Part shown: positions 41,798-45,526 of the stretch, piece after piece
Layout: each line of letters begins with the position of its first letter
Position numbering within the stretch: position 1 is the first letter of the stretch
Origin: Candidatus Bathyarchaeia archaeon
GTDB lineage: Archaea; Thermoproteota; Bathyarchaeia; Bathyarchaeales; Bathycorpusculaceae
Reading direction: 5' to 3'
NCBI GenBank assembly: GCA_050015395.1
Contig: JBEKBM010000014.1
Location: forward strand, 16,029 to 80,028
DNA: 64,000 nt
Notes under the pieces: model-generated
The model's database searches: none
What the model saw: the letters and a program-made list of their open reading frames with translations, nothing else
Told to the model about the DNA's origin: nothing
Program-made: the position numbers and the translations under genes

Positions 41798-42217
41798 TTA
41801 GGGAGATAGTAGTGTTGTTATGGTTTGAACGTCAACGTATTTCTGAGCTTTCGCTTTGAGTTGTTTATCTTCGGTTATGAGTTTGAGGTCTTTTTCTTTG
41901 GCAAAATAGATGTAGCTGGAATCATAAAAGGAGAGTTTCTCGTTTTTTGCGATTTCGAGGATTTTCTGAAAGGTTACTGCTTCGCTTGTTATCCAGTCAG
42001 TCTTCATTAGGATAGTCTGTGCGACCTTTTCCAGTGTCTTGGAATCTTCGGGCGTTAGGAACTTTGTTAGGGTGCTTTCCTTCCAAATCGCGTTTCCAAC
42101 TTCGTAATAGGTCAAATCAAGAACTATGGAGTCTTGCAAGCATTCGATCACACTTTTGGCATTGGACTTCTTGATTAGAAACATGAATGCGCTTGCGTCG
42201 AGTAGGTAGCGCTTCAT
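41798..42217 (-). CDS. vapC: PIN-domain toxin (VapC)
   Basis: YLLDASAF, YYEVGNAIW, SFYDSSYI and LITEDKQL. Confidence 0.9.
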   Translation of the reverse strand: MKRYLLDASAFMFLIKKSNAKSVIECLQDSIVLDLTYYEVGNAIWKESTLTKFLTPEDSKTLEKVAQTILMKTDWITSEAVTFQKILEIAKNEKLSFYDSSYIYFAKEKDLKLITEDKQLKAKAQKYVDVQTITTLLSP

Positions 42218-42438
42218 CGCTGGTCTCTTGATTCTCTTATGGCTCTTACGATTTCGTCGTCAGGGATTTTATCTAAGATAATTTTCATTTCGTTAATCGC
42301 TTGGGCTAGTTCTGCGTCTTCTCGCTTCTTGACTTCGTCTTCTAGAGCTTCTCTGACGGTTTTGCTGACGTTTATTTTGTGCTTTCTTATCTTTTCTTTC
42401 AGGGACTTTTTAACCCTGACGGCGATTATCTCTGACAT
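42214..42438 (-). CDS. vapB: RHH antitoxin (VapB)
   Basis: IIAVRVKKSLKEKI...INVSKTVREAL; 4-bp overlap with vapC. Confidence 0.85.
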   Translation of the reverse strand: MSEIIAVRVKKSLKEKIRKHKINVSKTVREALEDEVKKREDAELAQAINEMKIILDKIPDDEIVRAIRESRDQR

Positions 42439-43617: not shown

Positions 43618-43744
43618 GGCAGTCGGCTGAGCTGAATATTCTTTAATTTTTCTATTTTTTATTCAATGCAAGCTTGAAAGGATTGTTTGGTTCTCTGAGG
43701 AAGTTAAGTTAATATAGCCGAGGGAAATAATTGCTTTCGTCTTC

Positions 43745-43782
43745 GGTAGTTTCCGTATATAACCTACCTTAAAAAACCCGGG
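43745..43782 (+). ncRNA. Candidate preQ1/preQ0 class I riboswitch aptamer
   Basis: GGUAG-UUUCCGUAUAUAAC-CUACC-UUAAAAAA-CCCGGG: 5-bp P1, loop starting U and ending AC, 8-nt A-rich tail then C. It lies between a TATA-like box (43708-43715) and queT. Confidence 0.6.
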
Positions 43783-43791
43783 TTGAATGAA

Positions 43792-44283
43792 ATGAGATTA
43801 AATACTAAAAAATTGGCAGTTGTTACTGTTTTTGCCGCTTTGTATGCGGTTGGAGTTATTTTTTTGGCGCCGATAAGTTTTGGGATCGGTCAAGTGAGGG
43901 TTGCTGATGCGTTGTTGCCGTTGTCGATGATTTTTGGGCTCCCAAGCGCCTTGGGCTTTAGTTTGGGCTGCATAGTTTCTAATGTTTATGGCGGGCTTGG
44001 AATGATTGATATTGTTGGCGGTGCAGGTGCAAATCTTGTTGCTTGCACTTTAGCTTGGTATATTGGACGTAAGGGGAGGGGTGCTCAGCGGTTTCTGGGA
44101 ACTGTTGCAGAAACAGTAGCCGTTGGTTTGATTGTTGGAGGATACCTCTCACTGATATTTCAGGTTCCTGTGGAAATCAGTCTCTTAGGATTATTTATTG
44201 GCGAAACGATAGCGATAAACCTTATAGGTTTTCCCCTGGAAGAAGCTATAAGGCGTAGCAAAATTTTTAGAAAATACAGCTAG
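43792..44283 (+). CDS. queT: QueT family queuosine-precursor transporter (ECF S component)
   Basis: AALYA...PISFG..QVRVADAL...G..LGC.VSN...G..D...G signature. Start is the ATG at 43792 or the TTG at 43783. Confidence 0.88.
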   Translation: MRLNTKKLAVVTVFAALYAVGVIFLAPISFGIGQVRVADALLPLSMIFGLPSALGFSLGCIVSNVYGGLGMIDIVGGAGANLVACTLAWYIGRKGRGAQRFLGTVAETVAVGLIVGGYLSLIFQVPVEISLLGLFIGETIAINLIGFPLEEAIRRSKIFRKYS

Positions 44284-44405: not shown

Positions 44406-44726
44406 AAAGAACCCATTATGATGCGATTAAGGGCGAGCAGTCAAGAGAAAAATGCTGTATTAGAAGCCGTGTAAAGCATTGTCCATTGAGCCGACTAAAG
44501 TATTCAAGGAATAATAGATAGACAAGCTTGCAACTTGTTAGGGCATTAGTTTTGTTTTTTTGGTTACAAAAATTGGAGACTTCTTGTTGATTTCATTATG
44601 AAGCCGCACTTTATTACTGTTGTTTGAGAGCTATAGCAAATTGCTGCTGTTGAGAATAGTTGGTAATGTGCATAAGGTTTATGTATGTATTCAAAATGTA
44701 TACAGATATGTTGGTTGAGTATCTGC

Positions 44727-44999
44727 ATGGAAGAAGTAGTGACATCCCGGGTTTCCGAAGAACTTGTAAAGAAGGTTGATCAAGCAGTTTCCAGAGGCTA
44801 CTTCAAAAGCAGAAGTGAGGCTCTAAGAATAATTATAGAAGAATACCTAAAAGAGCATCCTGAACTATTTTTAGGCGACAAGGTTCAAGAATTGATCATG
44901 AAGGCGCCTGCCTTGGGCGATGAGGAGCTGGAACAAGTTGGCGCTAAACTGTTCAAAGGTATCAGCGTAGCTAAACTTGTGGCTGAAGGACGAGCTTAA
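44727..44999 (+). CDS. vapB: RHH/CopG antitoxin (VapB)
   Basis: VVTSRVSEELVKKVDQAV..GYFKSRSEALR; the stop overlaps the PIN gene start. Confidence 0.85.
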   Translation: MEEVVTSRVSEELVKKVDQAVSRGYFKSRSEALRIIIEEYLKEHPELFLGDKVQELIMKAPALGDEELEQVGAKLFKGISVAKLVAEGRA

Positions 45000-45526
45000 T
45001 GCTGCTCTATTTGGACACCAACGTTATCTTGGCAAGGTATGCCCCAAATGAATCGCAGCATGACAAAGCGAAAACGCTTCTCAGTAAAGTAGAGACGGGA
45101 GAGCTGTCTGCTGTGACTTCTGTATTAACTTTAGTGGAAGTGGTTTGCGCTACAGGCAGGGCTTATGAAAGGTTCGGTGACAAAGCGGAAGCGTTAGGGC
45201 GAGAAGAGGTAGCTGGAGCTTTCCTTCGAAGAGTCATAAATATCAAAAAGTTGGAGTTTATTCCCATGGGCGGCGAAGCCTCATTTAACGTTAATGATCG
45301 ACGTGTGAAGCTTCCAGCATTATTTGCGTTGGCTCTGGAGATAGGTTCAAAGACGGGTCTCAAAACCTTGGATACACTCCATCTGGCTTCAGCCTCTATA
45401 GCGTCGCGGATTTATGGAAGCAAAATTGATTATTTTGTAACTTTAGACGAGGACATGTTAAAACGACGCGAAGATATAAGCAGCTTGATAGAAAGCAGAG
45501 TTGTTTCACCAGCTGATAAGTTTTAA
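44999..45526 (+). CDS. vapC: PIN-domain toxin (VapC)
   Basis: YLDTNVI, SVLTLVEV, TLDTLHLASA and FVTLDED. Confidence 0.9.
   Translation: MLLYLDTNVILARYAPNESQHDKAKTLLSKVETGELSAVTSVLTLVEVVCATGRAYERFGDKAEALGREEVAGAFLRRVINIKKLEFIPMGGEASFNVNDRRVKLPALFALALEIGSKTGLKTLDTLHLASASIASRIYGSKIDYFVTLDEDMLKRREDISSLIESRVVSPADKF

Follow-up and report, generated by a model that had tools for sequence, protein, structure and literature searches.

Our analysis of a 64,000-nucleotide stretch of a Candidatus Bathyarchaeia archaeon from peat (assembly GCA_050015395.1, contig JBEKBM010000014.1, positions 16,029 to 80,028, forward strand; hereafter the window) revealed a tiny and almost invariant predicted RNA element in front of queT, a gene for a 7-deazaguanine (preQ0) transporter. 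The element carries the hallmark bases of the bacterial preQ1-I riboswitch and is, on sequence evidence, probably a ligand-sensing switch of a kind not yet described in archaea. It reads GGTAG TTTCCGTATATAAC CTACC TTAAAAAA CCCGGG at 43745-43782, with TTTCCGTATATAAC at 43750-43763, TTAAAAAA at 43769-43776 and CCCGGG at 43777-43782, and it lies 36 nt after a TATA-like box and 10 nt before the queT start codon. The observation made in the preliminary description is therefore confirmed, whereas its interpretation as a preQ1/preQ0 class I riboswitch is only partly supported by our data. The downstream ORF encodes a QueT protein (Pfam PF06177, 95.5 bits against a curated cut-off of 33.7 bits, E 4.6e-27, residues 9-154), although no NCBIfam model matches it. 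Since a ketopantoate-reductase-like gene lies upstream and an RHH/PIN pair downstream, queT stands alone, and no regulator gene travels with it in the window. The individual features are listed in Table 1.

Table 1. Features of the queT leader and gene in the window, with their conservation among related leaders.
Feature	Position	Strand	Sequence	Conservation and remarks
TATA-like box	43708-43715	+	TTAATATA	An A/T box of the same kind lies at the same distance (36 nt before the first G of the stem) in the leaders of this genus; transcription start around 43738-43741 inferred from the usual archaeal spacing
P1 5' strand (predicted)	43745-43749	+	GGUAG	Aptamer positions 1-5; G5 (43749) forms the closing pair and is present in 17 of 18 distinct model-aligned sequences, the exception being the decayed copy at locus L050, which sits before a gene remnant
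L1	43750-43752	+	UUU	U6, U7, U8; invariant in 18 of 18 distinct model-aligned sequences
P2 5' strand (predicted)	43753-43755	+	CCG	C9, C10, G11; invariant in 18 of 18; complementary to CGG at 43779-43781
L2	43756-43763	+	UAUAUAAC	Ends in A43762 and C43763, the position of the class I specificity cytosine (role inferred from PMC11625349); only the 3rd and 4th loop bases vary freely; final AAC in 18 of 18
P1 3' strand (predicted)	43764-43768	+	CUACC	CUAC invariant in the 18 distinct model-aligned sequences
L3, A-rich tail	43769-43778	+	UUAAAAAACC	10 nt here, 9-19 nt in relatives; ends in UAAAAAAC, AAAAAAAC, AAAAAACC or AAAAAAGC in 32 of 32 cores
P2 3' strand (predicted)	43779-43781	+	CGG	CGG in 31 of 32 distinct cores, the exception being L050; G43782 could add a U8-G wobble pair
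Shine-Dalgarno (SD)-like sequence	43780-43786	+	GGGUUGA	Overlaps the P2 3' strand; relatives have GGUGAU, GGGGUGAU or GGAUUGA at this place; this lineage uses GGAGGUGA-type SD sequences, as shown by the type B leaders
queT coding sequence	43792-44283	+		163 aa plus stop; S-component of an ECF-type 7-deazaguanine transporter

To assess whether the element could have arisen by chance, we scanned both strands of the 2,594,141-base genome with a descriptor built from the preliminary description, that is, a 5-bp stem closed by G-C, U6, G11, a loop of 10-14 nt ending in AC, an 8-nt tail with at least 6 A, and then C. It matched once, at this site, while ten local shuffles of the genome gave 0, 1, 0, 1, 0, 0, 0, 0, 0 and 0 matches (mean 0.2); the descriptor was written after this sequence had been seen and is thus somewhat fitted to it. 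In contrast, the search with the Rfam PreQ1 model (RF00522, gathering score 39 bits), which had been proposed beforehand as a test, failed. No family of Rfam 15 reached its gathering score anywhere in the window, only two unrelated chance matches of 9.7 and 13 bits appeared at E<=10 on the 141 nt from 43690 to 43830, and RF00522 gave nothing in the whole genome at E<=0.001, although the same search did detect its target in the B. subtilis control. Scans of all 4227 Rfam families in the window and in the 141-nt region also returned neither preQ1-II (RF01054) nor preQ1-III (RF02680), and 16 related loci gave no Rfam match apart from an rRNA fragment. By the family's own model, the element is not a member of preQ1-I.

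It is NEVERTHELESS a real, strand-specific and conserved element. QueT homologues occur in 49 of 61 relatives, and the six closest (68-100% protein identity) carry the same roughly 38-nt block while the flanks differ. A covariance model of the block (R1) found exactly one copy of 41.9-69.9 bits in 20 of 120 genomes of the genus, the next best score being 21.6 bits, as well as copies in 7 of 151 genomes in a sample of the order, spanning three families, and in 2 of 151 genomes in a sample of the class. Of 80 QueT loci fetched by protein from one genome per species, mostly Candidatus Bathyarchaeia/Bathyarchaeota MAGs plus a few Methanomethylicia and Nitrososphaeria, 24 carry this leader. A metagenome scan with a pattern that fixed the loop and tail but left all ten stem positions free returned 67 stretches, of which 65 have complementary GGUAG-type arms and a QueT ORF starting 6-12 nt after the CGG on the same strand, whereas the other two have neither and are chance hits. 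Every intact copy examined lies 6-12 nt before a QueT ORF. Moreover, the conservation has a sharp edge: over 65 distinct sequences, the mean pairwise identity is 0.95 in the first 24 nt of the element against 0.36-0.37 in the 40 nt upstream. Since genomes of one genus are related, these counts do not represent independent events.

The anatomy of the element can be read from its variation among 18 distinct model-aligned sequences (from 47 hits) and 32 distinct cores collected with a sequence pattern. The metagenome pattern and the pattern used for the cores fix L1, P2, most of L2 and the end of the tail, so that only the stem arms, two L2 bases and the 5' part of the tail were free in those sets, and the invariance of the fixed positions rests on the model-aligned set and on the QueT-anchored loci. 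In the model-aligned set, UUUCCG after the stem is invariant, the next base is U in 17 of 18 and the following A is invariant. The tail ends in A-rich sequence followed by C, CC, AC or GC, and CGG follows. The C at 43777, which had been proposed to pair with G11, is C, A or G in relatives and is thus not conserved. The canonical P2 register is wrong, and the conserved pairing is CCG with CGG after a tail of 9-19 nt. The base after CGG is G, A or U in relatives, and we do not count a fourth P2 pair with U8. Among the 32 cores, the stem arms are GGUAG/CUACC in 23 and AGUAG/CUACU in 3, a compensatory change of pair 1, while six carry a single mismatch, four at pair 1, one at pair 3 and one at pair 5. 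Covariation support is thus limited to one pair; these mismatches and the decayed copy L050 apart, pairs 2-5 and all three P2 pairs never vary, which says nothing for or against them. Both helices are possible in every intact copy. Thermodynamic folding, which neither supports nor excludes the pseudoknot, does not predict P1: the MFE structure uses other pairs, z is +1.13 and the P1 probability is about 0.02, with P1 alone at -4.2 kcal/mol and P2 alone at -0.9 kcal/mol. This is common for pseudoknots of this size but is not support.

A comparison with the features of class I preQ1 riboswitches named in a recent review (PMC11625349) showed that each of these positions is present and near-invariant in the archaeal element, namely a conserved G-C closing pair of P1 forming the pocket floor, U6 in L1 with a UU motif in types I and III, a specificity cytosine directly before the P1 3' strand preceded by A in types II and III (U in type I), an A-rich L3, which docks in the P1 minor groove of the bacterial H-type pseudoknot, and a P2, predicted in the archaeal element, that buries the first SD bases. 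Like types II and III of the bacterial class, the element has a predicted minimal H-type pseudoknot layout with a 5-bp P1, a short L1 starting with U/UU and a 3-bp P2 from the loop, it precedes queT, and translational OFF control would be the expected logic. It differs in its fixed P1 sequence, which apart from pair 1 does not covary, in its CCG:CGG P2, and in L2 (8 nt) and L3 (9-19 nt, with a C or CC before P2), which are longer than is known for bacterial members; moreover, its host is an archaeon that uses preQ0 for archaeosine, so that preQ0 rather than preQ1 is the likely ligand. On paper the element works like a class I aptamer, but as it fails the family model we regard it as a variant and not as a member. 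These family features are taken from review text only, since the leader of E. coli K-12 yhhQ, examined as a validated class I member, gave no PreQ1 match at gathering or at E<=10; the published E. coli aptamer came from a BLAST hit and not necessarily from K-12 (PMC10622847 and PMC11602147 were consulted alongside the review, and none of the three papers contains the word "archaea"). The bacterial preQ1-II riboswitch of queT leaders in Streptococcaceae and relatives also hides the SD inside a pseudoknot helix and resembles the archaeal type B leader described below more than the element in the window, but it is about twice the size, has an HLout fold with four helices and is restricted to Bacillota. 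The riboswitches already reported in archaea, with TPP and fluoride as common classes and FMN, Mg2+-I and guanidine-II as rare ones, are likewise cis-acting leader aptamers but have other ligands and folds, and that 2017 survey lists no preQ class (PMC5473149). Full-text literature searches, which did not extend to supplements and subscription journals, found no description of a preQ0/preQ1 riboswitch in archaea, in agreement with the preliminary description, and Rfam 15 shows no archaeal preQ riboswitch either. In bacteria, queT is often under preQ1 riboswitches, while archaea probably salvage preQ0 (PMC5372724).

The gene content fits preQ0 salvage as the likely setting. The genome G000 is 98.9% complete, and its one TGT-family gene is TgtA, the tRNA guanosine(15) transglycosylase (TIGR00432, 563 bits against a cut-off of 350). 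It has no QueC, as the only matches are weak hits to the first 60 profile positions inside larger frames, whereas a PTPS/QueD-like gene is present. Across the 120 genomes of the genus, QueC was present in 93 at E<=1e-15. Genomes with this leader (type A) keep tgtA, and of 17 genomes with type A only, 16 lack QueC, the exception (G118) having a weak 92-bit match, while the three genomes with both leader types have QueC. TgtA inserts preQ0, so these organisms must import it, and a transporter repressed by its own cargo is the expected logic.

We consider it very probable that the element is a cis-acting regulatory RNA for queT and, with less confidence but still more likely than not, that it is a preQ0-sensing translational OFF switch. 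In this view, the roughly 37-nt aptamer (43745-43781) would fold as an H-type pseudoknot in which the A-rich tail lies along P1 and P2 forms between the loop CCG and the CGG that begins the SD-like sequence. A 7-deazaguanine base, most likely preQ0, would bind between P1 and P2 and be read by C43763 (Watson-Crick), by U43750 and by a tail adenine. The bound pseudoknot would hold the first SD bases, so that less QueT is translated when the cell has enough preQ0, and without ligand the weak P2 would open and the transporter would be made. Our analysis demonstrates the conservation of the element, its complementarity, its position relative to the SD, its link to queT and the gene-content context, whereas the fold, ligand binding, the identity of the ligand and the direction of control are inferred. 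The anti-SD is inferred as well, from the SD sequences of type B leaders, since a pattern search for the 16S rRNA 3' end found nothing in the genome. Two peat metatranscriptome runs from a single study yielded contigs, 95-99% alike, that cover 43756-43898 and 43756-43944; however, contigs cannot show a start, a strand or a level, DNA may be present in such libraries, and the missing cover upstream of 43756 is not evidence.

Among the alternatives, a riboswitch of this fold with another ligand, such as preQ1 or queuine scavenged from bacteria, 7-carboxy-7-deazaguanine, the archaeosine base or guanine, is possible but unlikely. Bacterial class I aptamers prefer preQ1 over preQ0 by 17- to 130-fold, and QueT is described as a preQ1 transporter in bacteria (PMC11625349); moreover, the conserved G5, which in bacteria contacts the aminomethyl group of preQ1, is kept here. 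On the other hand, TgtA, whose substrate is preQ0, is the only TGT-family gene found in the genome, preQ0 is the compound that type A genomes without QueC must import, and the sister leader type B controls queC, the enzyme that makes preQ0. We hold it equally unlikely that the element is the site of a protein, either an RNA-binding translational regulator or a repressor binding the GGTAG-N14-CTACC inverted repeat as a DNA operator just downstream of the promoter. Invariant stem arms are what a sequence-specific protein site would show, the element sits where archaeal repressors often bind in this genus, 36 nt after the TATA box, and folding energy alone does not favour the hairpin. However, the "spacer" is as conserved as the arms and is asymmetric, a conserved A-rich tail and CGG follow on one side only, and the hallmark bases coincide with the class I preQ1 pocket. 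The distance to the SD-like sequence and start codon is fixed, while the distance to the TATA-like box varies from 36 nt in this genus to about 68 nt in other families, the tail takes insertions of up to 10 nt, and several lineages have a stable hairpin directly upstream whose sequence differs but whose pairing is kept. These features favour an RNA element acting at the ribosome-binding site over a DNA operator.

A conserved leader structure that serves mRNA stability, processing or constitutive translation efficiency without sensing is less likely still. The two RNA-library contigs cover the leader and the 5' part of the gene and would be compatible with it, but the element is linked to a single gene family and to the presence or absence of the preQ0 pathway, the SD overlap is conserved, and three different structured leaders sit in front of the same gene family, as with the three bacterial preQ1 riboswitch classes. 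A chance resemblance in non-functional intergenic DNA, for which nothing speaks beyond the failure of the Rfam model, is all but excluded by the conservation data.

If our reading holds, a preQ0-sensing switch would add a new ligand to RNA-based regulation in archaea, where riboswitches are rare, and would tie this regulation to archaeosine, a modification specific to archaeal tRNA. A roughly 37-nt aptamer that can be tested with commercially available ligands is an easy experimental target and could also serve as a small inducible element for archaeal genetics. The sorting of leader types with the biosynthetic pathway, with type A before a stand-alone queT in genomes without queC and type B before queT-queC, gives a natural example of riboswitch turnover and possibly of convergent evolution of one of the smallest known aptamer folds. 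It would also mark many Bathyarchaeia of peat and hot springs as preQ0 auxotrophs that depend on their neighbours.

The second leader, type B, is about 65 nt long and precedes most QueT genes of the genus (90 of 120 genomes with a second covariance model, R2), and it was also found in 24 of 151 genomes sampled from the phylum, including other classes. It consists of P1 (GGCGG/CCGCC), a conserved GUGAGUG, an anti-SD stretch, CCCG, the P1 3' strand, an A-rich tail, CCCGG and the SD, and its predicted pseudoknot hides the SD. On 87 distinct sequences, in an alignment that was fitted to P2 and P3 but not to P1, 4 of 7 P1 pairs and 6 of 7 anti-SD:SD pairs show changes on both sides; overall 94% of cells pair, against 44-59% when partners are slid, and 0 of 500 shuffles reach the covariation score. 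An apparent compensatory P2 change in one type B leader (L174) proved to be a one-base register shift in the model alignment and was not counted. Type B is followed by queT and then queC, QueC is present in 89 of 90 type B genomes, and type B shares with type A the invariant CCG:CGG pairing and the A-rich tail that ends in C. This shows that RNA control of 7-deazaguanine genes exists in these archaea. A third leader of about 115 nt, type C, has three hairpins, the last of which pairs the SD, and precedes QueT in six hot-spring MAGs. Neither a type B leader, at E<=10, nor the type C leaders matched Rfam.

On a quick maximum-likelihood tree of 149 QueT proteins with a midpoint root, the proteins behind types A and C form one group (SH-aLRT 95) that is nested among branches carrying type B. 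Type A therefore looks derived within archaea, descent from bacterial preQ1-I is unlikely, and the likeness may be convergent. It is conceivable, though tentative, that Thermoproteota archaea have their own set of preQ0 riboswitches with three aptamer architectures in front of queT or queT-queC, paralleling the three bacterial preQ1 classes, and that type A arose inside archaea, replaced the older type B when queC was lost and converged on the bacterial preQ1-I pocket. A natural control is provided by one genome, G131, in which only the first 30 residues of the QueT encoded behind the type A leader align with QueT. That leader alone has lost G5 and the middle G of CGG, without compensation, while the same genome has an intact type B queT-queC locus.

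Besides the element in the window, which is a type A queT leader, we found a second queT leader of about 65 nt (type B), which does not occur in the window and for which the loci L024, L012 and L258 serve as examples. Type B is predicted to form an H-type pseudoknot with a covariation-supported P1 and an anti-SD:SD helix. This leader was detected in 90 of 120 genomes of the genus and in 24 of 151 genomes sampled across the phylum, including other classes, and it heads queT-queC operons. No match to Rfam was obtained. Type B is a strong candidate for a new archaeal 7-deazaguanine riboswitch class. A different gene order was observed at the loci L014 and L016 (genomes G060 and G052), where queT follows directly after a gene whose C-terminus looks like QueC, with a CxxCxxC motif. 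No leader motif lies between the two genes, so the order is the reverse of that of the type B operon.

Our comparison also revealed a third leader (type C) of about 115 nt in front of queT, with three predicted hairpins, the last of which would pair the Shine-Dalgarno sequence. It occurs in hot-spring Bathyarchaeia MAGs, and four of its 28 predicted pairs show compensatory changes. As for type B, no Rfam family matched it. Furthermore, contigs labelled as Chloroflexia, Limnocylindrales or Methylomirabilota bacteria (records L103, L123 and L178) carry Bathyarchaeia-type queT genes, with up to 89% identity, together with type A or type B leaders. These are probably mis-binned archaeal contigs.

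Among the type A leaders, we detected a decayed copy at locus L050 of genome G131, in which G5 has become A and CGG has become CAG. This copy sits before a queT remnant of which only residues 1-30 align, while the same genome carries an intact type B queT-queC locus. In some lineages, a stable hairpin (-8 to -13 kcal/mol) is located directly upstream of P1; its sequence varies but its pairing is kept. This hairpin is absent in the genus of the window, where the TATA-like box lies at that place. With respect to expression, two metatranscriptome contigs from one peat study both end at position 43756, inside the element, although at a depth of 4-6 and with contigs only this cannot be read as an RNA 5′ end. 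The positions of these features are summarized in the table.

Positions of the additional leaders, genes and metatranscriptome contigs observed in the window and at related loci
Feature	Locus	Position	Strand
Type B queT leader	L024	1988-2053	-
Type B queT leader	L012	1992-2059	-
Type B queT leader	L258	1501-1558	-
Type C queT leader	L154	486-603	+
Type C queT leader	L144, L152, L156, L157, L158, L007		
Decayed type A leader	L050 (genome G131)	1501-1541	-
Hairpin upstream of P1	L187, L185, L208, L228, L210, L092, L218, L091, L094	the 36 nt before the stem	
Region of the two metatranscriptome contigs	window	43756-43944	
Ribbon-helix-helix plus PIN-domain pair downstream of queT	window	44685-45526	
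Second small gene pair upstream of queT	window	41798-42438	-
tgtA	L100 (genome contig C8)	1468-3090	+

Searches with PF01702 and PF17884 for a second TGT-family gene, that is, an ArcS-type gene, returned none besides tgtA. The TgtA protein itself (541 aa) also matches DUF5591 at residues 376-509. In the vicinity of queT, the ribbon-helix-helix plus PIN-domain pair on its downstream side was confirmed by Pfam, whereas the small upstream pair only looks similar. Both are probably toxin-antitoxin modules of the VapBC type.
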